A DNA stretch of 64,000 nt from contig CM000154.2 in assembly GCA_000004695.1 (NCBI GenBank), positions 1,536,001 through 1,600,000 of the forward strand, in the 5' to 3' direction. Each line of letters starts with the position of its first letter. Positions within the stretch are counted from its first letter, which is position 1. The notes under the pieces were generated by a model, which had not been told where the DNA came from, ran no database searches, and worked only from the letters and a program-made list of their open reading frames with translations. The position numbers were made by a program, and so were the translations under genes. This DNA is from Dictyostelium discoideum. Its lineage: Eukaryota. Positions 8,554 to 60,861 of this stretch are shown here, one piece after another.

Positions 8554-11500
8554 ATTAACAAATAATCTATTTTATTTTATTTTTTAATAATAAAAATAGA
8601 TACCACTATTCCAACTGCATTTTCATTTTTAAATATATTAAGTAAAAATGGAAAATGTATGACATATGATGAAGGTGCTGATGGATTTGTAAGAGGAGAG
8701 GGAGCAGGTTTGGTTGTTTTAAAGAGTTTAAAAGATGCAATTAAAGATGGAAATAATATTTATTGTATAATTAAAGGTGGAAATACAAATGTTGATGGTA
8801 ATGGAAATGCTGATAAAGCAAACTTCTTTCAACCATCCAAACAATCGCAGTCAGATAATATTAAATTAGCATTGGAATCTATTAAAAAGAAAAGTATGCT
8901 TGATATCGATATTGACTATGTTGAAACTCATGGTACAGGTACACCCACTGGTGATCCAATTGAAGTTGAAGGTATATCAAAGGTTTTTAAAGAAAATCAT
9001 TCACCTGAAAATCCATTATTAATAGGTTCCCTTAAATCAAATATTGGTCACATGGAAGCAGCATCCGGTGTTACTTCATTAATAAAATGTTGCCTAATGT
9101 TCAAAAATAAATCTTTTGCACCAAATGTAAATTTTCAAAAGATTAATCCAAAAATCAAATTAGATGAATGGAATATTAAAGTTGTAACTGAGGCAATTCC
9201 ATTTAAAAAAAATAAAATAACATCAATGGTTGTAAATAGTTTTGGTGTAACTGGTTCAAATTGTTGTTTAGTTTTAACAGAGTCTATTAATAATAATAAT
9301 AATAGTAATGTTGATAAAATAACAAAGAATGAAAAAGAATATTTAATCCCATTTTCAGCAAATTCTAATCAATCATTAAAGAATTATATAGAGGAAGTTT
9401 CTAAAATTGATGAATCTTTACAATTTGAAGATTTTGTTTATAAACAGTTATCAAATAAATCAACATCTTTATTTCAACGTTTTGTAGTGACATCAAAGGA
9501 TTGGAAAGAATTAAAATATAAATTGTCTCAACCTTTACCTTTAAAAGAGATTTCTTCTAGTATTTCAGTTAAAAAACCTAATCCAATTACTGTTTTTGTA
9601 TTTTGTGGTCAAGGTTCACAGTTTAATAAAATGGGGTTAGAATTATATAATAATGATAAGAATTTCAGAAATTATATCGATAGATTTGATAAGAAATTGT
9701 TGGAATACTATGGTTATTCAGTAATATCAAAGTTAAGATCAATTGATGATAACGATTTAATTACAATTCATGATCCAATAATTGCACAACCTGCAACAGC
9801 AATTTTACAAATTTCATTATTCGAACTTTATAAACATTGGGGTATTAATCCATCATTTATAGTTGGTCATAGTCTAGGTGAATTACCAATGGCCTTTTGT
9901 TCAGGTATGATAGATTTTGATACGGTTTGCTATTTACTTTATCATAGATCTTTAGCTCAATCAAAAACCAATGGATGTGGTAAAATGTTATCTTGTAATA
10001 TTAGTAGTGAAGAGTTTGTTAAAAACTATTCACCTCGTTATCCATTTTTAGAAATTGCTTGTTATAATTCGCCAAACTCAATTGTAGTGGCTGGTAAAGA
10101 ATCAATCCTATTAGAACTATCAAAAGAATTTAAAAATTCTGGTATATTTTGCGCAATGTTAGGTTCATTATCATCATTCCATACAAGTAGTCAATTAGAA
10201 GTAAAAGATCATATCTACTCTTTAAAATTTGAATCAAAGGAACCAGTAATACCAACATTTTCAACAGTAACAACTCATTTATTCAATTCAAATAAACTAT
10301 ATGATAATGATTATATTTTTCAAAACATTATGAAACCTGTATTATTTAATGAAACAATTTCAAATCTTTATAAACATGTAGAAAATAATCAACTTGGTAG
10401 TGAGATGATTTTCATTGAATTGGCACCTCATCAAACTTTATCATTTTATTTGAAACAATTAATACCAAAAGATTCAAATTATTTCAGTAATAGTAACTCA
10501 ATTACAATTTTATCCCCTCTTCATAAAAAGAAAAATGATTATTTAGAAATTCAACAAACAATTTCAACTTGTTATTGTAAAGGTTATGATGTTAATTTTA
10601 AATCACAGATCCTCATAGAATCTAAAACAAATATATCGAATAAATCTTTACCACTTTATCAATGGGATGATAAAGAGTTTTGGAAAGATTTAGAAAAACA
10701 AAAAAGAATATTACAAGGTCCACCGATGGATACATTGGGTTTTTCAAATGAAAAATCACCAATTTTAAAATCATTTGAAACCAAAATTGATATAAAGAAA
10801 AAACCATTCCAATATTTAAAAGGTCATATTGTAAAAGGTAAAATTTATTTCCCAGGTGTTGGTTACATAGAGAATTTATTGAAGATGTATCCTTCACAAG
10901 ATATTGATATAGATTCCATGGAATTTGAAGCACCTTTAATTTTAATTGAAGGTATCGTTACATGTTTACAATCAAACGTTTATAAAATAGGAAAGAATGA
11001 ATTCAAAGTACAATTTCATTTCCAAGATCAAAAAACAAAACAATGGATTCAATCTTCATTTGCCAATTATCATTTATCTCATAGAGATGACTTTGATCCA
11101 ACTACCAATAAATTAAACATTCAAAATTTAATTTCAAATAATTGTAATTTAACCAAATTATCAAAGAATCAATTTTATAATTTCATAAAGGCAAAAGCAG
11201 GTTTATCTTATAATGGAGAATTTCAAGGTGTTGAAAAATGTTATTTAGGTGATAATTGTTCATTGGTTGAAATTCCATTTGACACAAGTAATCAAGATGT
11301 TGAAACCAATATTAACATGATTCCAATTTTAGATTCATGTTTACATGGAGTTCATATTCTTTATGTTGAACAATGTCAAATGGTTTTAGAAAAGATTGAA
11401 GGATTAAAATACTATTCATCAACACTCATATTATCAAAACAAAAAGAACAACAGAAATTATATGTTTTCACAAGAATTGAAAATAAAGATTTAATAAACA

Positions 11501-15649: not shown

Positions 15650-16802
15650 TTAATTTTGTAATGGATAAACATCATATAACTGAGAGGAGGAATCAAGTTT
15701 AGAACCTGAATAAAAGTAATAGGTATTTTGGAAAGTTGCAAAAGGCATAGAAGGAGAGCATAGTTCCTCAATATCGGAAATAAAATCTAAACCAAAAGTT
15801 ACATGATCACCATTATCAATACCAAATCTACCACTATGGTAAGGGTTTCCATCTTTATAAGCTCCATCATATGGGATCTAATTATTAAAATTGTTTTTAA
15901 TAGTTAGTAGAAAATAAAAAGGAGACACTATTGTAAAAAAAAAAAAAAAAAAAAAAAATACTTACCCAACCAATTGATTGATGATAAAATTCACATTTAA
16001 CGTGAGGTTGAGTATCTTTAATAGCAATTTTACTTCCTCTACCATATAAAAGACGAACTGGAATATTATTATATCTTAAAATACTTGAAAAGAACCAAGA
16101 ATGAACACCACAATCACCATGTCCAAATTTAAAAGCCTCAGTTGGTGTACCATCATGACTATATGGATTTTGATATTTCAAATTCTTATAAATAAACAAT
16201 GAAACTCTATATGCAAATTCTAGTATACCTTCAATATCTCCACCATCATTATGAGGGTATAATCTGTTAGCTTCAATGAATTGTTGAAATTCTGGTGTAT
16301 TAAAATTAATCTTTGTTGTAGGTCTTAAATAAACTTCAATCTCTTTATCTGTAATTGGTTCAACTTCAATTATTTCATTTGGATCTTTAACTTCGGTTAA
16401 ATGAACTTTATAAAGATCTACATCAACTCTATACTTTGCTATTGTAGACTTTATATTATGCACACTTTCAAATTTATGACTAACCCTATAAATATCGTTA
16501 TGTGATGACCCAATAATTTCAGAGTCTACCAACAATTCATCATTACCACCATTATGAAGTGTAAATGATGAATATCTAACTTGTTGATTATTAATTGATG
16601 GTGGTACTGATAAGTATTGTTTTGTCCAAGAAAGCTCTAAATAAAAAAAAAATTAAAAAAAAATTAATATTGAATAATTCTCATCATATAAAATACCATA
16701 AAAATAACATACTTGTATTTGAATAGGTCATAACATTTTGATATACAGCAGTAACTGAATTGTTATATATTTTTGAAAGTTTAAATCTTTTATTTCCCCA
16801 TA
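15650..16802 (-). CDS. Transglutaminase-like domain protein, cassette A, complement(join(15650..15877,15966..16636,16713..16802)). May be the 3' half of one long gene continuing into cassette B.
   Basis: TGase-like core GDCGVHSWFFSSILRYNNIPVRLLYGR followed by a His motif (TQPHVKCEFYHQSIGW). Donors GTAAGT (15965) and GTATGT (16712); acceptors TAG at 15878 and 16637. Last exon translates IPYDGAYKDGNPYHSGRFGIDNGDHVTFGLDFISDIEEL...YPLQN with stop at 15650..15652. The exon-by-exon structure parallels cassette B. Confidence 0.6.
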
Positions 16803-16817
16803 CTAAATAATTTAAAT

Positions 16818-19978
<3,161 letters not shown>

Positions 19979-33470: not shown

Positions 33471-33878
33471 ACAAATAATTAACATAGTTTTTTTTTGAAA
33501 AAAAAAAAAAAAAAGTATGGGGATCATCTTATGAAAATAAAGATACAAATAAAAATTTAAATTTTTTTTATAGATGTAAAACATGTGCATTATCACCAAA
33601 TTCAAGTATATGTTTTGAATGTTTTAAAGCAGGTCCACATGAAAGAGAGAAACATGATTATTCAATGAGTTTTGCATCCTATGGTGGATCATGTGATTGT
33701 GGAAGTTTGGATTCTTGGAAGAGAAGTGGATTTTGTTCGGAACATGAACATCCAGAAGTTGATTATTCACCATCTGGTGATATGGATAAATTACATTTAC
33801 TCACTACTCATTTAGTATTACGTCATATCTTATTAATCTTTTTAAATATAACTTTTGATCTTCATTCAAATAATAGTA

Positions 33879-33909
<31 letters not shown>

Positions 33910-33994
33910 TTTAACATCATTTACAACAAATACTACCACAACAACAACTACAACTACAACAACAACCACTTCTACATCTACGTCACCAACAAAG

Positions 33995-34042
<48 letters not shown>

Positions 34043-37000
34043 ATAACATTAAATACAATAGAAACAAAAGAAACAATTTCAATTAAAATTTTAAAATGGA
34101 TTAATGATATTGCACATGTTTCAAGATCAATATCACATGTATTATCAGAGGAATTGTGTTATCAATCATTGGATCCGATGTCATTAGATCCAAATAATAT
34201 TAAACCATTGATCTTTACATGTATGGAATATCAACTTGAATTAATTAAAAATTTACAACAACAACAACAAGAAGAAGAAGGACAAGAAGATGAAGAAAAA
34301 GAAAAAGATTCATTAAAATTAACAAATGAAGAAATTGAATTTTTAAAATTTGAATTTAAATTACCAAATGAATTTTCACCACCATTAAAAAGAATATTAT
34401 TTATTGAACAAAAGACAATTAGACAAGAGTATATGTTTATATTTTTATTCCTATTATGTGAACATACATTCAAATTTGGATTTTCACAATCGTATTTAAA
34501 TGTTTACAAGAGTTTATGTTACAAAGACACTGTGGATATATTGTTTAGATTCTCACCTCAAGTGTTTTCAGTTTGTTCAGTTAGTGAACAGTTTTCAATT
34601 GGAATGGAATTTGGTTTTTTGGATTGTATATTCGAATCGTTGTTCTTTCATTTACAAGCATCCGATAAGTTGGATAAGAATCATATTGCCATCGTATCCG
34701 ATTTAAAAACCATTCTACAACATAGGAATATAGCCCATCATATGATCTTTGAAAAGAGAAAGTATTTGAAATATTATATCAATTTGCTTCAAATTATTCA
34801 ATCCACAAGTAATGATATCAAAAGTGGTGGTATTGGTGGCGGTGGTGGCGATGAGCTCAATGATGAGGACTATTACTATCATCATAGTAACAACGACGGT
34901 ACCAACAATGGCGACTATCAAAGACGTTACATCGATACTCATATACCGTATGAAGATATCAATTGGATACAATTCTTTCAGATTGATACCGAGTTGAAGG
35001 ATATTTCAAACATTTTAATCGACTCTTTATCCACTCAAGACACATTGCAAGGCTTAAGAGATATGATTACTTTCATAGCGACTAATTTAATCACAGATCC
35101 ACAAATTCAAGAGTTACAGCCATACTACAATGTAATGGTTTCAAAGAAGGATATCTATTTGGGTGAGAAATCTATCACTACCACTCTACCCTTTCATCGT
35201 TTTTTGGGTGTAACCACTCATAAGGTCATCCAATTGTATAGTGGAATGGTGACAATTAAAGAGTTGCTTCCAATTGATTTCAATTGTTTTGCTTTCCTCT
35301 ATCCTTTGTTAAATGCTAATGTTTACACTCAACAAGTCAATTCCAATTATTGGGTTAGAAATGGTGATGTCAATGTAAAGAAGAAGGCATATGTTTACTC
35401 TTTGTTCTTTTTGGAAATGGATTTATCATTGATTCAAATGATCGCCTCTCTTATAAATGTAAACGATTTTTGTATTTTCACTTCAAAGGAGTTTGGTGCC
35501 CTCTTACCATACGGTTCAACCACTGTCATTGGAGGTAATGAGAAAAACAATTTATTTAGACCATCTTCAAATGTTTCACTCTCTTCCAATCATCATAGAT
35601 ATAGTCATTTCTTAAAGTTTATAATCGAGGTACTACAAGAACGTCTTTTCTTTATGACACCAGATCAACACACAAAATACACTTTGATTCAAATACTTTG
35701 TTCAAAACCAAAAACTCATAGTCAAATTGATTCCGTTATGAATTATGTTGAGCGTGAACTCAAGTATGAACATATTCTAAAGGAGATCTCTGATGAAATT
35801 CCACCTTCTGGTGATAATCCTACAAACTATAAAATGAAGAATGAATTTTGGAAGAATTTCAATCTCTACTATCCAATTTATACTCCTTATATTTTGGGTG
35901 AAGAATCACTTCAAGCATTTTTTGAATATAAAAAACAATTAAAAATTTCTTATCAAAATTCTTTACCAATGCCACCAAAATATGAAAATTTATCTTCAAT
36001 TGAATTTGAAAAATCATCACCATCATCATCGTCATCATCATCGTCATCATCATCATCATCGTCATCATCATCAACACCAAAAATAATAGAAGAATCTGTG
36101 GATGATAATTTTCCAACTACAACAACAACAACCACAACATCCACTGCAACTACTACAATCACAACTACAAATAATAATAATAATAATATTATTATTAAAA
36201 AAGATAATGATCAAATTAAATTCTTTGAAATTATGAATTCAGATTATTTACATTTTATGATTACAAATATTTTGTTATCATTCATTCAAGGTAGAGAAAC
36301 AAATGAAATTGGTTGTGGTATAAATGATGCATTTTATTTATTAGTTTTAATTTTAGAGAATAAAATTAAATTAAAATCATCATCGTCATCATCAACAACA
36401 ACAACAACAGAATTAATAAAAACTGAAATACCATGGACAATTTTAGATCAACCATTAAATTCATTTTCAACTTATGGTGATGCAATTTTATGTATACTTC
36501 AAAAGTTTAATTTCTTTGGTATTGGTAGATCAACATTAGATGTTTTGTTAGAGTATTATCAAGAATCTTATACCAATAATATTTATTTAGATAAAAAGGA
36601 ATACATTGATAAATGTTTATCAATACTTTATAATATTGATGAATCTATAGCAAAAAGAATAAAAACAAGATCACCAACTTTTTCACCAATTAAAAATTTA
36701 TCACTAAATAGTGATGGTAGCGTCATTTCTTCAAATGATGATAATAGTAACAGCAACAACAACAACAACAACAACAACAACAGCAATAATAATGGTGGTA
36801 ATCAAAATAATAATCAAAATAATAATAGCAATGAAGATGATGGTGATGAAAATAATAGTGGTAAACGTGATAATGAAAAGAAATTAAAGGATGCAAAGAA
36901 ACGTCAAGCTGAAATTATGGCAAAATTTGCAAAACAACAAACTCAATTCCTTCAAAATGTAGATGATTTAGGTTATGATGAAGATGACGATGAAATGGAT

Positions 37001-37672
37001 TATAGCTATAGCGCGCATAATAGTGGTAAAAAGAATAAACAAACTCCAATTTCATCACCTGGAAAAACCACTTCCACCACTGCAACATCTTCACCATCAC
37101 CATTTGTTAATAGTAGTAGTAGTAGTAATGGATTTGAATCAATTTCAAAGAGTAAAGAAATATTCAATGATAATATAAAGAATCAAAGTTGTGTATTGTG
37201 TTATGAATCTCATATTAGTGATTCTGATCCATTATCATTGATCTCATTCCTTCAACCAAGTAAAATGATAGCATACTCCAAGTGTCAATACGTTGAAAGA
37301 AAGTACCCCGAATTAACAAAGTATGATTTCTTTGTTGGTAGTGAACCAACCTATTACAATTTCCCACAAAAGAGAGATATGAATACTTTAAACTATATGT
37401 CATCATTACACATTCGTAGTTGTGGTCATTATATTCATAAGAAATGTCATTCAATTTACTTTTTAAAGGTACTCACTCAAGAACAGGATGAAAACTTTAA
37501 ACCATCTCTCAAGGAATTCTTATGTCCATTATGTAGAAGAGTTGCTAATATCATTATGCCAACCTATACTGAATCATCAGTGACATGTTCTCCAATCATC
37601 TCTTATTTTGATATTACCAATAGTACTAATAATAATAATAATAATTCAAATAATAATCTAAATAATAATCTA

Positions 37673-37703
<31 letters not shown>

Positions 37704-38048
37704 GTAATAGTAATAATAATAATATTAGTGGTAGCAATGGTTTAACAAATAGTAATGGTATTGGAAGTAGTAGTAATAGTGTTAACAATAGTCCAAATTT
37801 TGGTGGTAATGCCAATAATCTATCTATTTGGGTCGATTCATTAAAAAAGAGATTAAAAGATTTAGTAGTCATTGAACCAAGAAGTAAACTATTTTTCTCT
37901 GATTGGTTATCAACTTTAATACCTTCAATGATTGAAGGTATTACACCATGGGTACTTTATCAAATTGTTTCAAAAAATATTGAATTTTTAGAATTAGCTT
38001 CAAGATTAGTTGAATTATCACCATCATCATCATCAAATAATAATAATA

Positions 38049-38124
<76 letters not shown>

Positions 38125-39345
38125 GACAACATATCCAATTGGAAATGAATTATTTAGTAGAGATATGTTAACAATTCATACATTATTTAATTTAATTGGT
38201 TCATTAAATCAATCTTCAATTGATAGTAAATTTAAAGAAAGATTAGTTGATATAATCAAAGGTAAATCTGGATCAATTTTATCGGTTGATCCATTTTCAT
38301 TATTCATTGTTTTAGTTTCAATATTGGGTACACCAACAAATCAAGATGTTGAAATCATTACAACTTTGGTTTTAAATTTATTCATTACTCAATTTTATTT
38401 AACAAATTTATATTTAGAAAAAGGTATTAATTTATTAATTAAATTATTGTTTAATATAATTTATAAAACAACTAACATATTTCATAATATTATTTTTTTT
38501 TTTTTTTTTTTTTTCATTAAATTTTAGAAATTAATAAAAAACAAGTTAAATCAATATCACAAATTTTTCAACAAACATATACAGCAGCATCAACATCAAC
38601 ATTAAGAATGAAATATGAAGATAGATTAAAGAAAGTTATGGAACCATTAGCAAGATGTTTGTACATTGCATATCAATTCTTACAACCACCTCAAATTAGT
38701 GGTGATGGTATAAACTATATAAACAGAGAAGACCTTACCAATAAGGAAAAGATTTACTCAAGATTAGGTATAAATTCAATGGAAGAAATAGTCAATAGAG
38801 CATTATTTAACAATCCATACTTGAGTCAATGGTTATCACAAATGGAGAGTAAGAAAGTGGATCCATTCTTTATTGTAGAATATAGACGTCCAAAATTCAT
38901 AACACTTCCAGAGAGTTTTGAAGACTTTTTCGTTTCAAGTGCCCAAAGAGAATGTATGAATTGTAAGACTAAACCAGAGTTTTCTGCAGTTTGCTTACTT
39001 TGTAATCAATTGGTATGCTCTCATAGGAGCGAATGTTGTAATGATGATGATAAACATTATAACATATCCGAAGGCTATAAACATACTTTGAAATGTGGCA
39101 GTTTTAAGGTTGGTTTCTTTTTAGAAACTAAAGCTCCTCGAATCGATATCCTACGTGATCATAGAAAGAGTATTTTTAATAATGGTTACCTCGATCAATA
39201 TGGTGAATCCGATCCAACTTTGGATCGTGGTAAACCATTATTAAGAAATGATAATAACTTTCAAGATCTTTGGAATTGTTGGATTACTCATTCAATTGAG
39301 GATCGTTTCCTTTCAAACTCAACACTTTCTTCTAGAACTTTTTAA
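33035..39345 (+). CDS. UBR-box N-recognin E3 ubiquitin ligase (UBR1/2-like), join(33035..33401,33516..38423,38528..39345), about 2030 aa
   Basis: The UBR box is split by a phase-1 intron (G|GTATGT at 33402, acceptor AAG at 33515). The spliced sequence is VCCSRVWGSSYENK...YRCKTCALSPNSSICFECFKAGPHEREKHDYSMSFASYGGSCDCGSLDSWKRSGFCSEHEH. A RING-like region follows (CVLCYESH...SCGHYIHKKCHSIYF...FLCPLCRRVANIIMP). A second intron (G|GTATTA at 38424, acceptor TTTTAG at 38527) joins the C-terminal UBR autoinhibitory domain (CMNCKTKPEFSAVCLLCNQLVCSHRSECC...GYLDQYGESDPTLDRGKPLL). Long polyN/polyS/polyT tracts lie inside. Confidence 0.8.
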
Positions 39346-39451
39346 ATATATAAATATATAAAAAAAAAATAAAAATAAAAAATAAAAAAAAAATAAAAAA
39401 AAAAATTAGATTTTTTTTTTTGGAAGTGTTTATTAAAAAAGTTTAAAAATA

Positions 39452-39484
<33 letters not shown>

Positions 39485-39885
39485 TATTTTTTTTTTTTAA
39501 AAAATAGTTAATTAAAAAAAATATAAAGAAGAATATCCAAAATCACCAAAAACCCACCCATAAAAAAAAACATATGAGCTAACCTATTAAAGCTCGAAAT
39601 TTATTCATATATCTTGAAAAATAATATTCTTTTTTTTGATAGTCAAATGATGGGGTTGTGCAAAAAAAAAAAAAAATAAAAAAAATAAAAAATAAAAAAT
39701 ATCTTCATCAAATGTTTTATTAGAATTATTATTTTAAAATCTTTTTTTCCCACATTAAACTTCACATTCGCACTTAAAAAAACTAAACAATGTCCACCTT
39801 TATTTTAATTTTTTTTTTTTTTTTTTTTTAACTTCACTATTTAAACTTTAATTTTATTATAATTATTTAATAAAGTTTCAAAAAA

Positions 39886-42800
39886 ATGAAGTATTCAAGT
39901 TTTTTATTACTTTTTATATATATATTTTTTATTTTAAATAATGTAACTTTTTAAATTTGGACTTTAAAAAATAAAAAATAAAATTAATATAGGATTTATT
40001 AATAGTTTAATAATTATTTTAATTAGATAAATGCTCAATCATGTCCATCTACTAGTTCAACATGGAGACCAACAATGGCATCATTTGTAACACCAACATC
40101 TCCATCAATTGCAACAATTCAACCACAATTAGACTTTTTATTAGGTAAAAATAATTTGGTTTTTATGGGTCAATATGGTTACTCTGCAACTTCGATTACT
40201 GATGGTCCAACAGGTGTAGCAAATTCATTCACTATGAATTATGATACTTGGGGTCCAGCAATGCATTGGTTGGTTGTAAAGACACCTGTTCCCGCTCTTA
40301 AAGCAAATCAAAACTATGAATTTAGTTTTGGTTTTAAATTGGGTCAAGTTTTAGGTAGCTATAATAAAATTGCAAGTATTTCAGTAAACTTTTTTAATCC
40401 AGCCGATATTACAGATCCAAATGGAGGAAGTCAATATTTTGTAACTCCAGCACACCCAGCAGTATATAGTAAAACCGTTACCACTGGTTCGTGGACTTCA
40501 TCTACAACATTTGCCCAAAACATCATTACTCTTACACCTACTGTTGATATTGGTTTATCAATAATGGCAATTCAAATTACTCGTACCTCCCAAACTGGTC
40601 CAGCTATTACCACTATGTTTGTTAGTAACATGAAATTATCAATTCCATCCAGAACCGTTCCAGCTCCACCAACCAACTTAATTACCAAAGATTCCGAATT
40701 AATTGCTATTCCAAAACCATTATCAAGTCTTGATGCTCAAGATTCAACAACATGTCCATACTTAGCAACCGATTTAGTTCACTGGCACGACCCAACAATT
40801 TGGACTAGTGGTGTTGTACCATTACCATCAACTTCATCAAACATTATCATACCAGCAGGTAAAAAAGTTTTAATCTCACCATGCTCAATCAACCAAACCG
40901 GTATTTATCAAAAAATTACTATCCCAGCAACTTCTGAATTAATATTTGCAGATGCAAGCTTAACAATGAATATTCAAGATATTTATGTCCAAGGTAAATT
41001 TATCATGGGTACAACTAAATGTCGTTACAATGCCAATATTAATATTGTATTCAATGGTGCAATGACAACTGTTGATACAATTGCTCAATATTTTGGTTCA
41101 AAAGGTATTGCTGTTGCTTCAGGTGGTTTTATAAGTGTTCATGGTAGACAATACCATAATACTTGGACTAAATTGGCTGCCACTGCTTGGTCTGGTGATA
41201 ATGTTATCTATATTCAAGATGATGTTAATTGGATTGTTGGACAACAAGTTGTAGTTGCAACAAGTGTTTATCAAGATGAGAAATATCCAGAGAATGAAGT
41301 AATGACAATTGCTGCCATCCAAGGAAAAGTTATACAATTCACTGAACCACTTAAATACTATCATTATGGTGGTCAAGAATATCAAGCTGAAGTCGCTCTC
41401 CTAACAAGAAATATCGTTTTCCAAAGTGAGTCTTCATCTGCTGCTTCATCATTTGGTGGTCATGTTCTTGTAAGTGGTGAAGGTCAGTTTGCTGGTATTC
41501 AACTCATTCGTATGGGTCAAAGAAACATAAAAGGTCGTTATCCATTACATTTCCACATGGCAAACACAGTTAGCAAATCCTACATTTCTGATTGTTCAGT
41601 AGTCAGTAGTTATTATCGTTGTTACACAATTCATGCCACTAATAATGTAACTGTTACAAGAAATGTTGCATTTGATGTAAATGGACATTGTTATTATTTA
41701 GAAGATGGTGTTGAAATGGATAACACTCTTTCATTCAACTTTGCTTCATATGTTCATACGATTGGAACTCCAGCAGCAGGATATAATCAATATGGTCAAG
41801 ATTTTACCCAATCATCTTCACTTGCACAACCAGCTGATGTTGCTGCTGGTGGTTTCTATATTACAAACGCATGGAATTCATTTATTGGTAATGCAGCAAG
41901 TGGTGGTTGGGCAGGTTTTTCATTCCCAAACTTAGACGCACCAATTGGTAATTCAATTAATGTTCCAATCGTTCCAAAACAATTCACAACTAAAGTTTTC
42001 CAAGGTAATACAGCACATTCAAGTGGATACTTTTTTGAATTTGGTTCATCCATTTATGTAGGAGGCGATTTATCAACAGGATCAGATGGTTTATTGGTTT
42101 ATAATAGTGGTAGAATTTCAAGAGAAACCTATTTAAATGGTGTTGAATCTGGAGGTGAAATTTGGATGAGATTTAACAATACAAAAGTTTATCTTTCCAA
42201 TAGGGGTATTGGTATGTGGGGTGAACGTGTTGAAGTTATTTTATTAGAAAGTCATGACTCCATTCGTCCAGGTTCATTATTTGGTGAAGCATGGTTATCA
42301 GATGCAATTGTAAATGGTCAAACTGGTAATTTATTGTCTAAAACCACTGATTATTCAAGACAAGGTTTCCAATTTTATGATACTTATGTAAAGACAATTT
42401 TAACCAATATCATTTTCAGAAACTTTGTTCATAATCCATTATCAACAAGTCCAGAAGATGACAATAGAGTGATCATCAGTATGACCCATTCCGATGAATT
42501 TAAACCACAATTTATCTCTGCTACAAAGAATATTACCATTCAAGGTACAGCTGTCTCTCAATATATTGGACATCGTATTTTTGATACTGGTTCAAGTCGT
42601 CAATTTAATTTTGTAGATTATGACGGTACCATTTCAGGTAGAAGTGTTCCAACTATTTTTGGCGCACATGATAAATGGTGGCAATTCGATAACACTTGTA
42701 CATACAATAACGATTGGAATTCTTGGGTTTGTAATAAGGGTACTTATGAAGTTGCAAGTGTATCTGTTGAAGTACCAGGCTATATGGATCGTTCAGGTGA

Positions 42801-43329
42801 ATATGATGCAACATCCAATGTCGGTTATATTTATTTATTCGGTAGTGGAATTACAGATTCAAGAAGAATGAATGTAACAAGAAATGTTGGTATCACTGGT
42901 ATTTCTGACTTTGGATGGTATTTATATTGGACTGTAGGTACACCAAGTTATATTAAACTTTGGTTATCAGAAGTTCCATATGGCCACTATGTTTTCTTTG
43001 CAATTCCATACCCAGCAAGTACAACCTTTAAAGTTTCATGTGAATATAAATATAACTCTCAACATTCTTATAATTTCACACAAGCCACATCAGCCGCTGC
43101 AGTTAGAAGTGGTGATGGTAAGAAATATTATTTCAATGGTACTCATCTTTTTGTTAAAGTTATCAACTTTGTCTTAAATGGAAGTGAATACTTTAGTCGT
43201 GGAGGTGCCAAAATCAATGATGTATATTGGGAGTTCATTGTTCACATTACAGCAACCAATACCGTAAAACCACCTGTAAATGGATTTTATACTGGTTTAA
43301 CAGATGTATTACCTTCAAGTACACTTTAA
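39886..43329 (+). CDS. Secreted large right-handed beta-helix-type protein (G8/PbH1-like architecture by inference), join(39886..39942,40027..43329)
   Basis: The short first exon encodes a signal peptide MKYSSFLLLFIYIFFILNN, with donor AAT|GTAACT and acceptor AATTAG at 40026, phase 0. The mature region is Ser/Thr/Gly-rich with repeated hydrophobic-x-hydrophobic beta-strand periodicity. It contains segments such as GQRNIKGRYPLHFHMANTVSKSYISDCSVVSSYYRCYTIHATNNVTVTRNVAFDVNGHCYYLEDG and many NxT/S sites. The family call is tentative. Confidence 0.55.
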
Positions 43330-43460
43330 TAAATCAAAATAATAAAATAGTAAAATAATTATGTTTAATATACAAAATTAAAAATAATGTTTGTTTTTTT
43401 TTTTTTATAATTTTGATGTTCTTTTTATTTTAATATTTTTTATTTAATACTTTGAAATTC

Positions 43461-43760
43461 CAAAGTGGCAGTTTTAAGGTTGGTTTCTTTTTAGAAAATA
43501 AAGCTATTCGGGTGGATATCCTACGTGATAATAGAAAGAGTATTTTTAATGATGGTTCCAATACTGTGAATGTTGGCATCACTGGTATTTCTGACTTTGG
43601 TTGGTATTTAAATAAATAAGTAAATTGGACTGTGGGTGCACCAAGTTATATTAAACTTTGTTTATCAGAAGTTCCATATGCTCGTTATTTGAGAAATTGA
43701 AAAAAAATAATAAAATAAATCAAAATAAAATAATAATAAAATAATTATGTTTATTTTTTT
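43461..43760 (+). pseudogene. Mosaic of decayed gene fragments copied from the two upstream genes: a UBR last-exon piece, a beta-helix-gene piece, and a 3'UTR piece
   Basis: 43461..43560 is ~88% identical to 39101..39196 (UBR C-terminal exon, GSFKVGFFLETKAPRIDILRDHRKSIFNNGY region). 43567..43690 matches 42884..42995 of the beta-helix gene (NVGITGISDFGWYLYWTVGTPSYIKLWLSEVPYG), with a 13-bp insertion. 43718..43760 repeats the AAATCAAAATAATAAAATAGTAAAATAATTATGTTTA motif that follows the beta-helix stop (43330..43368). The piece has no intact ORF. Confidence 0.65.
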
Positions 43761-43846
43761 AATTATTTAATCAATACCTCTAAAATAATTTCAGTAATTT
43801 GTAAATAGTTGATTTATTTTTTAGTTTTGATGTTTTTATTTATTTT

Positions 43847-43898
<52 letters not shown>

Positions 43899-44011
43899 AA
43901 TTATTATTAATTATTATTAATTATTATTAATTATTATTAATTATTAATTATTATTAATTATTATTATTTATTATTATTATTACTTATTATTATTATTATT
44001 ATTTTTAAAAA

Positions 44012-45925
44012 TTAAAATAATTCATCATCATCATCCTTCTTTTTCAATTTTTTTTCTAAATTCTTATTTTTGTTTTTATTTTGTTTGATTTGTTTATTTG
44101 ATAAACCTTCACCAGATACTGGGGCCAATTTGAATCTTTCTTCTTTTTCTTTTCTCTTTCTCTCTCTTTCTCTTTCCTCCTCTTCAAAAAGATCTAATTG
44201 AGCCTGAGTGATATTTTCTTTTGCCAACTCTTTTTGAATTTCCATTCTTTTTAAGGTTGCAGCAACGGAAGCAGCAACTTGAACTGGATCGGCATCAAGA
44301 CCCAACTCATATAAACGATCGATTTCATCTCTTTCCAATTTCTCTTTTAATCTCTCGGCTTCAGTATTCTCTTTCCTTTCAATTCTTTTAAGATGTTCTT
44401 GTCTCTCTTTAACTGTTAATGGTTGATAGAAACGACTAATGAGTAGACCATTTTTTTCAACATTAGTTTGAACCCTACCAATACCTTTAACCAAAGGTTC
44501 TAAAAGAGCGAAAATCTTTGGACCCTCTTGTGCCACTGGAGAATTACTATCTAAGACAATTCTATCTTTTTTGTCTTGGGGTGATTGTTTGTAGGTGATT
44601 GTAACTTCAACGCTGTGTCTTTTCAAAAGGAATTTAACAATCTGATCAAATTTAACGGCTCTGTCATTTTCATTGATATTTGAAGAGATGATAACACCCT
44701 TAGTTCCTTTGGTAGCATGATCAACTTTTCTTTCTCTCTCTTGTTCTAACCTTTTCTCTGAGATTTTAATGAAATCTTCCAAAGTGACAAGTCTTCCATA
44801 TACATTACCATTTTGACCAAATGTTAAAACGATATCCAACTTTTTAGTGTATGCGAGTCTATAAGCTTGTGGACCACTCATCAAGCCAATGTTAGTACCA
44901 TCGACATTAATCACTTGAACAGAATTTAGATTGATAACATCATCATTGAATTTTGTACGATTGTCTTTAAGTTTATCGACTTCATATAATCTAACACTTA
45001 ATTTTTTGATATCTCCATGATTTGAGAAAACTTTATTTGTAATATAGTTTGAAGGGCTTTTTGGATCACCAACTAAATCTTGATTTTTTGGAAACATTTC
45101 TGAAATCTCTTCATCAGCGAAACCAACCTCTGACAATAGTTTTTTCCTTCTATTCATTTCATAGTTGATTTTATATTCCAAAATCTTACTATTTTTCTTC
45201 TCCCTCATTTTTAAAAGGTTTGCTTTGTGTTCCATTGGTAATCTATCTTCTTGATACACCCTTCTCCCCCTTCTACGTCCATAAGCATCGTCTTCATCAA
45301 AATCGTCCTCTTCTTCTTCTTCTTCTTCTTCTTCTTCTTCAAAATCCTCCTCTTCTTCAAAATCCTCCTCTTCTTCTTCAATATCCTCTTCTTGATCTTC
45401 ATACTCCTCTTGATCATCGATTTCATTTTTTTGACGTCCATCATGAATTGGATTTTGTTTTGGACGAGATAAACTTGTCTTACCAAAATTTTTCTTTCGT
45501 GGTGGGAAAACGTGTAATTGATCATCATCTACCAAATCAACTTGTGGTTCTTTAAAATTTTCAGTTTCATCCAAATAGATATCAAATGATGAAATTTTAA
45601 TCTTTTTCTTTTGGTTAATTTCACGTTTTGATTTTTCAATCTTTGGATTTAATTGTTCTTCAATATATTTTTCATCTAAATCCATCTCTAAATCTTCAGC
45701 TCCCTCTTCTAAACCCATTGCACTTTTAATTTTTTCAGGTTCATAATTTGGAGTAATTGAAATTGAAGGTTTTTTAATATAATATCTATTTAAATTAATT
45801 TTATCATTATTAATTGAAACTAATGACAATGATGATGATGATGATGATGATGATGATAATGGTGTGAAAATTAATTTATTTAGGTATTGATTATTTCTTA
45901 AAATTTTATTTGTTACTGATAACAT
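44012..45925 (-). CDS. Acidic-tract protein with IF3-like N- and C-domains, possibly a mitochondrial translation initiation factor 3 homologue
   Basis: The N-terminus MLSVTNKILRNNQYLNKLIFTPL is presequence-like. A long Glu/Asp run (EEEEEDFEEEEDFEEEEEEEEEEEDDFDEDD) follows. The central region KLSVRLYEVDKLKDNRTKFNDDVINLNSVQVINVDGTNIGLMSGPQAYRLAYTKKLDIVL resembles the IF3 N-domain, and KGVIISSNINENDRAVKFDQIVKFLLKRHSVEVTI resembles the IF3 C-domain. The assignment is from memory and tentative. Confidence 0.4.
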   Translation of the reverse strand: MLSVTNKILRNNQYLNKLIFTPLSSSSSSSSSLSLVSINNDKINLNRYYIKKPSISITPNYEPEKIKSAMGLEEGAEDLEMDLDEKYIEEQLNPKIEKSKREINQKKKIKISSFDIYLDETENFKEPQVDLVDDDQLHVFPPRKKNFGKTSLSRPKQNPIHDGRQKNEIDDQEEYEDQEEDIEEEEEDFEEEEDFEEEEEEEEEEEDDFDEDDAYGRRRGRRVYQEDRLPMEHKANLLKMREKKNSKILEYKINYEMNRRKKLLSEVGFADEEISEMFPKNQDLVGDPKSPSNYITNKVFSNHGDIKKLSVRLYEVDKLKDNRTKFNDDVINLNSVQVINVDGTNIGLMSGPQAYRLAYTKKLDIVLTFGQNGNVYGRLVTLEDFIKISEKRLEQERERKVDHATKGTKGVIISSNINENDRAVKFDQIVKFLLKRHSVEVTITYKQSPQDKKDRIVLDSNSPVAQEGPKIFALLEPLVKGIGRVQTNVEKNGLLISRFYQPLTVKERQEHLKRIERKENTEAERLKEKLERDEIDRLYELGLDADPVQVAASVAATLKRMEIQKELAKENITQAQLDLFEEEERERERKRKEKEERFKLAPVSGEGLSNKQIKQNKNKNKNLEKKLKKKDDDDELF

Positions 45926-57047: not shown

Positions 57048-57365
57048 GTTTCATAATTAGGTTTGTTAGGTTGGTGAGAACTTTGATATGTTGAAGCGTT
57101 CTAAGTATTGATTTGGAAAGAGTTATTTATCTCTGATTTTTTTTTTTTTTTTAATATTATAAAATCAGTGTTTATCCATTAAAGGAAATAAACATTAAAT
57201 AATAGTTTTATTTATGAATTTTAATTTAAAAAATAAAGTGGTTATTCTTTTTTAATTTGAGTTATCAAAGAGTTTTAATTTTAAAATGAAGTGTAGTTAA
57301 AATTGGTTTTGTGAATTGTTCGATTGGGGTTAGATATAATTTCAGTTATTTTTTTTATTTTTTTT

Positions 57366-57613
57366 TATTTTAGTTTATGATAATGAAAAGAGAGAATGAA
57401 TGTATAGAAAATGGAGAAAAAAGAAATAATGTAAATTCATTTAATAGAATCATTAAGCTAACAGTAACTGATGGTATTGAATATAGTGAATTATTATTTT
57501 GGAAGATATTTAGAAATATAGTGACAATAAAATAATAATGTCAATTATTTCTTTTTTATTTCCAAGATATATTTTCGCAATTTTTTTATAATTTCTTTTT
57601 ATTTTTTAATTTT

Positions 57614-57650
<37 letters not shown>

Positions 57651-57790
57651 CATGTATTAATAATAATGACCAATCAGATTCAGCATCTCCTTCAATTACC
57701 ATTCAAGATATTGAAACATTTATAAAAATAACACCAAAAGAAAAATTAAAATCAACATTAGAAACCCAATAAATTCCAACTTTAATAATA
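57366..57790 (+). pseudogene. Truncated, internally deleted duplicate of the 5' part of the downstream gene (58285..60861)
   Basis: 57370..57555 is ~96% identical to 58270..58455 (MKRENECIENGEKRNNVNSFNRIIKLTVTDGIEYSELLFWKIFRNIV then a stop). 57658..57790 matches 59283..59412 (DQSDSASPSITIQDIETFIKITPKEKLKSTL). About 830 bp between the two blocks is missing in the copy. Confidence 0.65.
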
Positions 57791-57975
57791 ATTATCATTA
57801 TTAATAAGTTATAAAAAAAAAAAAAGGCGCTCTTTTGAATAATCAAAAAATGAAATGAATTATTATTATTATTATTATTATTAATAAGTTATAAAAAAAA
57901 ACAATGGGAGAGGGGTGATTTTTACTTTTTTTTGTTTATTTAATTATTTAATTATTTAATTATTTATCTATTAAT

Positions 57976-58134: not shown

Positions 58135-58284
58135 GGACATTCAGTGCGAAAAAAAAAAATAAAAAAAAAAATAAAAAAATGAATAAAAAAATAAATAAAA
58201 AAATAAAAAAATAAAAAAATAAAATAAAAAATAGTATATTGCAACGTAATAAACTATTTTTTTTATTTATTTTAGTTTATAATA

Positions 58285-59059
58285 ATGAAAAGAGAGAATG
58301 AATGTAAAGAAAATGGGGAAAAAAGAAATAATGTAAATTCATTTAATAAAATCATTAAGCTAACAGTAACTGATGGTATTGAATATAGTGAATTATTATT
58401 TTGGAAGATATTTAGAAATATAGTGATCAATAAAATAATAATGTCATTCATGGATAAACGATTTACACCAAAATATAAAACAATTTCAGATGGAGCTGAA
58501 ATGATTCGAAATAATCAATTCAGTCTATTAAAAGATAAAATTAAAATAAATTGCAGATATTTACATTTTTATGACAAAAAAGGTTGTGAGATTGAAATTT
58601 TAAATAAATTATTCAAAACAATCATTAGCGATAATGAATTTTACAGAAAATTCTTTAGAAATCACCTTTTTGAATTTACTAATAGAAAAGTAATCATTTC
58701 ATTAATTACATCAAAGAATTTACAAGTATATCAAATATTTATAGAAGAGTTTAATCATATACCAACTGTTTATGATCTAAAAATAGCAATTTCAGTTGGT
58801 GCTAACAAATTCATTAGATATCTATTAGAACAATCACAACTAGAACAATCAAAATTTAAAATAAACATATCAAAAGATGATTTAGATAATTATAATTCAA
58901 TTGATACAATAGTTGCTCCAAATAAAGTTATTTCAAATTTAAGAAAAATTATTTTAAAAAATTCTTCTAAATTTTTTTTTCCATTTAAATTATTAAATTT
59001 AAAGAGAGATATGTTTAAAGGATTACTATGCTATTTTAATTGTTATCAAAGTTTAAGAG

Positions 59060-59155
<96 letters not shown>

Positions 59156-59770
59156 TTCAAGAACTAACGATTGATACTCTTTTGAGTATTCATTCGAATA
59201 GAGAAAATGAGTTGATAATAAAATCAACATCAACAATAAAATCACTAATTAGAGTTTGTATATTAATATTAAAATTAAAAGCAATGACGAAAACAAACGA
59301 CCAATCAGATTCAGCATCTCCTTCAATTACCATTCAAGATATTGAAACATTTATAAAAATAACACCAAAAGAAAAATTAAAATCAACATTAGGAAACCCA
59401 ATAAATTTCAACTTTAATAATAATGTCAAGTATGATGATGATGGTGATGATGAACAACGTTTTTCTAAATTAATAACATACCAAATTAAAGAATATAATA
59501 GTAATAGAAATAGAATACCACGGAAAGTATTCTATAAATCAAAAAGTGGTCAAATGGTTCAATTAATTTGTAAACATTGTGGAGATTCAAGCTTTACAAC
59601 ATTTTGTTCTTTTTTACTTCATTATCGATACGATCATTCTCGTATGGATTTTCCACAGTTTGAAGACGCCGAAGAAGTTAGTATTAATCCCGGTGGCGAG
59701 CTTGAAATATTATTATATACACCCGATTTAGACAGTAGTTTTTTCAAAAGATTTAATAAACAATCAGAAG

Positions 59771-59863
<93 letters not shown>

Positions 59864-60861
59864 GTTGTAGGTCTAATGATGATGATGATGAACATAAAAC
59901 CTTTATAAAGAAATTATTGGATGAATATTATTCAATATTTTGTAAAGATAGATCAGCCATTATATATTATTATTATTACGATGGATTTAATAATATCAAT
60001 TTAGAAAATAAAAGTTTATACAGTGTAGATTTAAAAGAATATTATGAATCATTTAGATTTGGAATTCCAACATTTGACTTGGTTGGTCATTTTCTTTATG
60101 ACCACCTTAATTTTATATCATTGATAGATATCATGAGATATCCAGATAAAAAGTCAATTTATATTTTATTCTCAAATTGTACAGATAGATTAAAAAAGAT
60201 TCAGTTTATAGATAAAACCATTCAATCAATAAAATCAAATGGTTTACGAAATGTTGAAAACCAATTAACGAATTTCTTTTATATGGTTGTCATGCACGAC
60301 GATTTAGAATTAATAAAGTATTTTTTCAAACAAATAAATGGTTATCAATTACATTTGGGTGGTGGGGGTGGAGATTTACATTACTTATATATGTTTAACC
60401 CAACAATTTATATTGGTTCGGTAGATGTTTTAAATTATTTATTTGAAAATCATAGAGAATATTTTATTGATGATAATTATAACTATTATTCCTATTTCAA
60501 GAATTTAAAATTATTAAAACACTTTGAAGCATTAACACTCAAAGTTCCATCAACATTAAGAATTTGTGAATACTTGGACCACTATACCAGAGGTGATAAT
60601 TTTCAAAATTATATATCACATATCATCAGAAACCGTTTGTATTTGAGTATTGATTTGATTGAATCAATTTTTTGTTTCTCTCCAAAGAATACATTATTCT
60701 CAACCAATTCTCTTCAATCTACAACTATTAATTTTAAAACATACAAACTATTAGCAAACATCTTTTTTTCACAAAAAAAACGCAGAACAATAAAAATTTG
60801 GCCATCACTTTACCAAAGATTTTTTAAACTTTTTAGATTGGATGTTTACAAATCATTTTAA
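58285..60861 (+). CDS. Hypothetical protein with ankyrin-like helical repeats, two long polyN tracts and one C2H2-type zinc finger (CKHCGDSSFTTFCSFLLHYRYDHS)
   Basis: 858-aa ORF. The repeat-like blocks YLHFYDKKGCEIEILNKLF / LKIAISVGANKFIRYLLEQ resemble degenerate ankyrin repeats. CxxC-x12-H-x4-H finger spacing. (AAT)n-coded polyN. Confidence 0.5.

Follow-up and report, generated by a model that had tools for sequence, protein, structure and literature searches.

In the 64,000-nucleotide stretch of Dictyostelium discoideum DNA analysed here, referred to as the window, the spacer behind a gene for a G8/beta-helix protein contains short stretches that resemble parts of two neighbouring genes. 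This raises the question of how such a patchwork came to lie there, and whether it is what is left of a former second copy of the region, the product of a single complex rearrangement, a captured or retroposed piece of DNA or a small functional element. The original prediction took it for an old tandem duplication collapsed by deletions, a reading that is borne out by the tandem geometry of the pieces, by nested and complementary deletions among strains and by outgroups that lack the relic. Most probably, the relic is what remains, without function, of the second copy (copy 2) that a tandem segmental duplication produced.

The spacer between the G8 and IF3-like genes

The relic, about 400 bp long (43447-43860), follows the G8/beta-helix gene in a 682-bp spacer that separates the convergent DDB_G0288475 (G8) and IF3-like genes (Table 1). 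One of its coding sources, slice A (39083-39208), falls within the last exon, encoding PRT6_C, of a gene for a UBR1-like ligase; the other, slice B (42883-42982, possibly to about 43004), lies inside the main exon of DDB_G0288475. Pfam matches bear out the identities originally given to both source genes, namely a UBR ligase and a beta-helix gene. The 1084-codon ORF of the latter matches G8 (8.8e-33), CEMIP_beta-hel (1.8e-50) and CEMIP_X. Its gene name comes from members of the homologue cluster, and its tblastn match in the D. discoideum assembly L002 is 100%. The annotated protein has 1119 aa, part of them encoded by a short exon further upstream; judged by the L002 offset, the annotated model begins near 39886, about 189 bp before 40075. 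A literature search for DDB_G0288475 returned no papers. As for the IF3-like gene, its sole Pfam matches are IF3_N (6.1e-6) and IF3_C (3.4e-3), both under the curated cut-offs.

Table 1. Positions in the window of the relic pieces and of the genes that surround them
Feature	Position	Strand	Description
UBR1-like ligase, upstream ORF	33665-38527		Pfam UBR1-like_wing match
UBR1/PRT6-type E3 ubiquitin ligase, last exon (ORF)	38608..39345	+	Pfam PRT6_C, E 3.9e-36
G8/CEMIP beta-helix gene DDB_G0288475, main exon	40075..43329	+	UniProt Q54IW5
C, copy-1 3' flank of the G8 gene	43328..43445	+	AATAAA terminator region plus 'TTTTGATGTTC..TTTTAAT' tail
A'	43447..43571	+	Diverged copy of UBR last-exon slice 39083-39208; solid to 43557
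B'	43569..43680	+	Diverged copy of G8 slice 42883-42982; weaker homology on to about 43693
Spacer element AAATTGAAAAAAAATAATAA	43694..43713	+	B'-to-C' junction, common to all four relic-bearing strains
C'	43714..43860	+	Second copy of the G8 3' flank; then ancestral poly-T, (ATTATTAATT)n
IF3-like gene	44012..45925	-	Putative organellar translation initiation factor 3, convergent, downstream; weak Pfam matches

The first piece, A', aligns to its source with 109 matches, 10 mismatches and 13 gap columns in an explicit local alignment, which amounts to an identity of 91.6% without gaps (109/119) and of 82.6% with them. Its core (43462-43557 against 39091-39187) reaches 90.7% with an E value of 6.5e-32 in DUST-filtered blastn. 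The UBR slice first proposed (39101..39196) is real, the actual A' starting 14 bp ahead of the 43461 first given and including a 6-bp insertion. This insertion, TCCAAA at 43459-43464, is specific to AX4 and absent from the relic of strain FIW, and a 7-bp deletion lies near the end of A'. Around it (43449-43466), the insertion turns ACTTTGAAATGTGG into ACTTTG-AAATTC-CAAAGT, a perfect 6-bp inverted repeat, and it looks more like a quasi-palindrome (foldback template-switch) mutation than like simple slippage.

The second piece, B', is identical to its source at 95/100 positions (5 mismatches; blastn E 4e-24), apart from 12 inserted bases. The beta-helix slice of the original prediction stands; the insertion that it carries measures 12 bp, and not 13 as had been counted. 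This AT-rich insertion (about 43611-43623), with an in-frame TAA at 43617-43619, is again AX4-specific and is absent from the relic of strain FIY. In tblastn, A' matches UBR residues 159-193 and B' matches G8 residues 935-973. Both are joined via a TGAAT/AAT microhomology, with GTGAAT retained at the junction, and B' ends about 330 nt ahead of the position of the stop codon in the G8 gene.

Behind B', the spacer element is similar to that of the FIZ locus, which is of the pre-duplication type, and leads into C'. Against 43328-43445, C' shows 103 matches, 15 mismatches and 29 gap columns (103/118 without gaps), in AT-rich, indel-prone sequence where the homology is secure for about 40 bp only. 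Its head (43714-43753) agrees with 43328-43367 at 37/40 positions and is the sole other match within the window, with 0 expected from shuffles; the predicted repeat of the G8 3' flank motif is confirmed by this unique match. Taken whole, C' is AT-rich and does not rise above the AT-rich background of the window. The 25-nt tail of C has no second ungapped match at 3 mismatches or fewer and pairs with C' only in gapped alignment. C' is conserved in strains FIY, FIR and FIW. The remaining spacer (43849-44005) consists of a run of about 50 T (poly-T about 43849-43897) followed by a (ATTATTAATT)n-type repeat, the length of which varies between the window and L002 (spacer identity 98.1% with gaps) and among all strains.

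As had been proposed, A', B' and C' are all direct and collinear with the genome order, with the intervening kilobases missing; A' starts at 43447 and the copy-1 flank C ends at 43445. Copy 2 of AX4 lacks 39209-42882, and also the stretch from roughly 43004 to about 45 bp past the stop codon.

Several controls speak to the specificity of these similarities. Permissive blastn (word size 7, without DUST) against the window was swamped by AT-rich matches, and DUST-filtered blastn with explicit local alignment was used instead. Against the two coding sources, the alignment scores of the spacer are 154 and 143, while shuffle nulls have means of 24-26 (sd 2-3). A' and B' are coding sequence outside low-complexity DNA, and their identities of 91.6% and 95% lie above the 70% below which the original prediction would have been doubted, as it would for AT-only similarity. 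Self-BLAST of the window returned six internal repeat pairs only, two of which are A/A' and B/B'. Neither the window nor any locus of 15-20 kb has more than one copy of the relic. The relic is 100% identical in the independent assembly L002 and has homologues in three more assemblies, so that the probability of an assembly artefact is practically negligible.

Two other repeats of the window lie away from this locus. Positions 57354-57543 copy 58257-58446 (96.3%), including the ATG of an 858-aa ORF (58285-60861), and 57665-57792 copy 59296-59424 (97.7%), collinearly and with about 850 bp between them missing. This second patchwork (57354-57792) looks like a younger collapsed partial duplicate, about 0.5 kb upstream of its parent gene. 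In addition, 16287-16394 and 17775-17882 form a 110-bp direct repeat (81%) in the adjacent minus-strand ORFs 15897-16535 and 16818-18101, and may mark paralogous neighbouring genes or exons.

Alleles of the relic and their age

Nine orthologous loci (L001-L009), taken from the 90%-identity homologue cluster of the G8 protein, were compared. They comprise D. firmibasis (L001), D. discoideum (L002), D. citrinum (L003 and L009), D. dimigraforme (L004), the strains FIY (L005) and FIZ (L006), both labelled 'D. cf. discoideum' (locus tags ACTFIY and ACTFIZ), and the D. discoideum wild isolates FIR (L007) and FIW (L008; locus tags ACTFIR and ACTFIW). The Dictyostelium assemblies come from Holland et al. 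2025 (PMC12745789), which assigns CR116C and OT3A to D. discoideum and regards M4B and S6B as potential cryptic sister species. Assemblies of this kind are Nanopore-based, with small homopolymer errors possible and large differences unaffected. The window proteins are all 100% identical to L002, which puts the window in the AX4/AX2 lineage of D. discoideum. A neighbour-joining tree of the ungapped 3252-nt G8 ORF gives ((((AX4,(FIR,FIW)),FIY),FIZ),citrinum),dimigraforme, in agreement with the published species grouping (PMC12745789). The IF3-like gene is syntenic in L001, L002 and L005-L008. Its protein is 87% identical to that of AX4 in FIR and FIW, 82% in FIY and 74% in FIZ, with 97-98% for the G8 protein across these strains; the IF3-like gene is either fast-evolving or rich in low-complexity sequence.

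Among the nine loci, the relic is present only in AX4/L002, FIR, FIW and FIY. In FIZ, D. firmibasis, D. citrinum (both loci) and D. dimigraforme, blastn found no coding remnant, and the scores of the FIZ and D. firmibasis spacers against the coding sources are within the shuffle null (about 25, as against 154/143 in AX4). The FIW relic consists of 39083-39123, 'GTGATCAT' (from 39146-39153) and 42951-42982, then the common junction and C'. That of FIR begins with 39104-39123 and continues as in FIW, the first 21 bp of A' being additionally lost. In FIY, there is no UBR slice; the relic is made of 42683-42759, a 15-bp gap, an 18-bp piece and 42901-42980, followed by the junction and C'. The 18-bp piece (L005 9634-9651) is 100% identical to the FIY gene at 8894-8911.

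These alleles are both nested and complementary. The FIW and FIR relics can be derived from an AX4-like state via further nested deletions, a later deletion in both spanning the place of the A'|B' junction of AX4. AX4 keeps 39083-39208 and 42883-42900, both missing in FIY, and FIY keeps slices from 42683 to just before 42883 that are missing in AX4. Their common ancestor therefore held a larger copy that contained both sets, which means that the ancestral copy comprised at least A' plus 42683-42982. The junction 'ATGCTC(G/A)TT(A/C)TTT...polyA...TAAATC', with TAAATCAAAAT after the A-run, is common to AX4, FIW, FIR and FIY, so that the deletion from B' to the spacer predates the split of the four strains. 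The comparison of orthologous loci that had been proposed as a check supports duplication followed by collapse, and no genome compared keeps an intact second copy: neither an intact nor a near-intact one was found in any of the nine loci, and the approximately 3.5 kb between 39209 and 42682 is absent from copy 2 in every locus compared.

The ends of the duplication are less sharply set by these data. The FIY copy-1 flank runs through poly-T into ATT repeats ahead of the relic, unlike those of AX4 and FIW, which suggests that the right boundary of the duplication lies beyond 43445. Likewise, 39083 may be a later deletion end point and not the original duplication junction. The 240-bp spacer of D. 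firmibasis is too diverged to be aligned with C or C', so that it does not polarise C versus C'.

The spacers of the relic-free loci have features of their own. In D. citrinum and D. dimigraforme, the interval from G8 to IF3 holds another gene block (L003 9530-13220, L009 9528-12787, L004 10702-13934) encoding a poly-Asn protein with an 'ELLFWKxFRN' motif and a cytochrome P450. This block is absent from the window and from the discoideum-clade and D. firmibasis loci, which would make the G8-IF3 spacer a synteny breakpoint. In FIZ, the spacer (L006 9560-10095) has about 520 bp of unique sequence with a small inverted repeat, TATAATCAAA...TTTGATTATA, and no counterpart in the other eight loci aside from two short AT-rich matches. 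The possibility that the FIZ spacer itself contains a C/C' duplication was rejected, as its alignment to the FIZ genes is within the shuffle null and diagnostic sites date the duplication after FIZ. Two similar AT-rich elements in this spacer look like an older local repeat, with some uncertainty.

Source slices from all nine genomes were aligned with the relic alleles in search of such diagnostic sites. The relics and the genes of the four-strain clade have three derived states in common (alignment B columns 52, 239 and 274), for example GAC TTT (Phe) in the clade, as against GAT..G/ATG in FIZ and the outgroups. Columns 74 and 245 of the same alignment are ancestral in the relics. The sites point to a single origin on the stem of the clade of AX4/AX2, FIR/FIW and FIY. 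Mismatches of the AX4 relic number 8 to its own gene and 9, 9 and 9 to those of the other strains for A', and 6 as against 6, 6 and 7 for B'. Recent gene conversion is not indicated, since relics are no closer to the gene of their own strain.

The Jukes-Cantor distance between relic and source is 0.067-0.072, and that between the AX4 and FIY relics is 0.083. Distances at third codon positions, a rough neutral proxy only, are 0.10-0.11 for AX4-FIY, 0.135-0.14 for AX4-FIZ and 0.46 for AX4-D. firmibasis. Such values are expected of a copy that has evolved neutrally since an origin after the FIZ split and before the FIY split, its age corresponding to about 1/4 of the discoideum-firmibasis divergence. 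With a loose estimate of 50-100 My for the latter (PMC12745789), the relic would, as a rough guide only, have an age of the order of 10-30 My. The duplication predates the D. discoideum crown group.

Proposed duplication and decay, and rival explanations

The proposed history would begin with one duplication on the clade stem, after FIZ had branched off and before the clade diversified. At least 39083..43445 (4.4 kb or more) would have been copied, a unit that runs from the end portion of the UBR last exon across the promoter region between the genes to the entire G8/beta-helix gene with its 3' flank. The outcome would have been a second G8 gene, complete at first, preceded by a truncated 3' end of the UBR gene. 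We infer the full 4.4-kb duplicate and its exact original end points from the pieces that are observed. Copy 2, being unmaintained, would then have been whittled by successive deletions of 15 bp to more than 3 kb, mostly flanked by microhomologies of 3-5 bp or short direct repeats, together with small AT-rich slippage insertions. The deletion from the 3' end of the second G8 gene to the spacer would have preceded the clade split, the other deletions being lineage-specific. In D. discoideum, indels arise at twice the rate of substitutions, deletions outnumber insertions 4.5-fold and many indels are 3n (PMC7466956). The indels observed in the relic (+6, +12 and -15 bp) are all 3n, and their pattern fits this mutation spectrum.

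The same patchwork could have arisen in one step, through serial microhomology-mediated template switching of the MMBIR/FoSTeS type, after breakage of a replication fork or of both DNA strands where the G8 3' flank ends. Patches would have been copied from upstream and trimmed by later small deletions, and a complete second copy would never have existed. The patches are indeed short, a complete copy 2 was found in none of the nine loci, and microhomologies lie at the junctions (TGAAT/AAT at A'|B', and AATTC, which the FIY junction carries). However, template-switch products are often inverted or out of order, and here the patches are direct and strictly collinear, with a first junction that sets copy 2 exactly after the copy-1 flank, as a simple tandem duplication does. 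The strain series indicates a larger ancestral copy that shrank by ordinary deletions in every lineage, and if ordinary deletion is extrapolated, no special event is needed to account for the patchwork. Not all strains have the same junctions, and the B'-to-spacer one predates the others, which denotes several sequential events, with which a complex founding event is compatible. Strict collinearity and the demonstrated ongoing stepwise loss make this one-step origin less parsimonious, and it is unlikely. A patchwork of fragments of two genes, with an A-rich run after B' (43699-43706), could also suggest that a mobile element captured gene fragments, or that a transcript, either read-through or chimeric, was retroposed. 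Yet the pieces derive from the directly neighbouring genes and follow their genomic order, the relic occurs as a single copy in the window and in each 15-20 kb locus, and an inverted-repeat scan returned low-complexity A/T pairs only, with no specific terminal inverted repeats. Against retroposition, C' is non-transcribed flank or flank behind the poly(A) site, the A-run matches the ancestral spacer element in FIZ, and the GTGAAT at A'|B' means that this junction is not a splice product joining exon to exon. Such an origin is extremely improbable. On the same grounds (two genes plus post-stop flank, adjoining the parents, with an ancestral A-run and a junction that is not exon-exon), classification as a processed (retro)pseudogene was rejected.

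A functional element, either a small chimeric ORF or a locus producing antisense RNA or siRNA that would target the mRNAs of the UBR ligase and G8 genes, was considered as well. A' and B' share a single reading frame (...KSIFNDGSNTVNVGITGISDFGWYLNK*VNWTVGAPSYIKLCLSEVPYARYLRN*), the spacer that contains the relic separates the convergent G8 and IF3-like genes, and 90-95% identity over about 100 nt would permit cross-targeting. Nevertheless, an in-frame fusion has a chance of 1/3, and the only ORF of the relic, of 55 codons, starts with TTG, has no ATG and is broken by the TAA at 43617-43619. It is not conserved in FIY, FIR or FIW, where the alleles are frameshifted or truncated; every strain deletes the relic differently, and the UBR slice is wholly gone in FIY. 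Eight of the 13 substitutions in the A'/B' core are non-synonymous (6/8 in A' and 2/5 in B', counted by hand), and the divergence of the relic is near that of third positions; the substitutions are compatible with neutrality. Against Rfam, nothing rose above threshold, the sole match being mir-1006 (22.8 bits, E 0.14, gathering score 64), and the L002 annotation calls no gene at the relic. The chance that the relic is a functional element is very slight. A chimeric new gene formed by exon shuffling was rejected in view of the TTG start, the TAA interruption, the lack of conservation in other strains and the absence of a gene call in L002. Judged from the sequence, the relic would be without transcription or function, as it has no intact ORF, no conservation and no match to an RNA family.

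A more speculative reading keeps a role for transcription. The relic might be transcribed on both strands in AX4 and feed RNAi, with small RNAs dampening the UBR ligase, G8 or both; its bases are the convergent position of the genes and the stretches of about 100 nt at 90-95% identity to two expressed neighbours. In a milder variant, the poly-T/ATT-repeat spacer between the G8 and IF3 genes would be a recurrent breakage hotspot, of which the discoideum-clade duplication, the block of foreign genes found in D. citrinum and D. dimigraforme and the unique 520-bp insert in FIZ would be signs. Dual-strand RNAi, with the hotspot as its milder variant, is very unlikely.

Kinship with known systems and meaning

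The relic is an ordinary unprocessed (duplicated) pseudogene fragment, of a well-known kind, as seen from its homology, its adjacency and orientation, its derived distribution and its disabling lesions. Like other such fragments that stem from tandem segmental duplication, it adjoins its parent in the same orientation, is collinear and includes non-coding flank; it also carries disabling lesions and neutral substitutions and is absent from outgroups. Unlike typical unprocessed pseudogenes, it takes in pieces of two adjoining genes, retains about 6% of the unit and is represented by four orthologous alleles at different erosion stages. With MMBIR/FoSTeS rearrangements it has in common that nearby sequences are joined at microhomologies in a patchwork, but its pieces are strictly collinear and direct and the strain series displays stepwise loss. 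Neutral relics that are 'dead on arrival' serve to measure DNA loss, in analyses of the Petrov type. The relic resembles them as a neutral copy that gains deletions faster than insertions; unlike them, it is one locus, in which a few large deletions dominate, and by itself it yields no rate estimate.

Closer parallels come from Dictyostelium itself. Partial tgr genes undergo repeated gain and loss by local duplication (Holland et al. 2025, PMC12745789) and, like the relic, are partial-gene remnants left after local duplication, in the same organisms and the same genome set. However, the tgr locus is a hypermutable multigene allorecognition hotspot with recombining members, whereas the relic comes from a single duplication among single-copy, housekeeping-type neighbours without family expansion. 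The chromosome 2 duplication of AX4, a segmental duplication of the laboratory strain (PMC12745789), is likewise a tandem or segmental duplication of D. discoideum. Laboratory-strain duplications, however, are of hundreds of kb, recent, strain-specific and intact, whereas the unit of the relic is about 4.4 kb, older and almost erased.

The value of the relic is that of a worked example, in which one dated duplication can be traced through four alleles at different stages of erosion. The series illustrates how fast and by which events D. discoideum sheds redundant DNA, namely 3n insertions rich in AT, and microhomology deletions whose sizes range from 15 bp to over 3 kb. It complements mutation-accumulation estimates, which point to low duplication and deletion rates and to indel-rich, deletion-biased small mutations (PMC9849192, PMC7466956). 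Spontaneous gene duplications are reportedly rare in D. discoideum, with very low rates of gene duplication and deletion (PMC9849192), and natural duplications with a datable history are therefore of some value. For annotators and read-mappers, the G8-IF3 spacer contains near-identical short pieces of the UBR ligase and of DDB_G0288475, with 15 or more positions at which the relic departs from its sources. Finally, a genome-wide census of such relics could give a DNA-loss rate for a compact, AT-rich genome.
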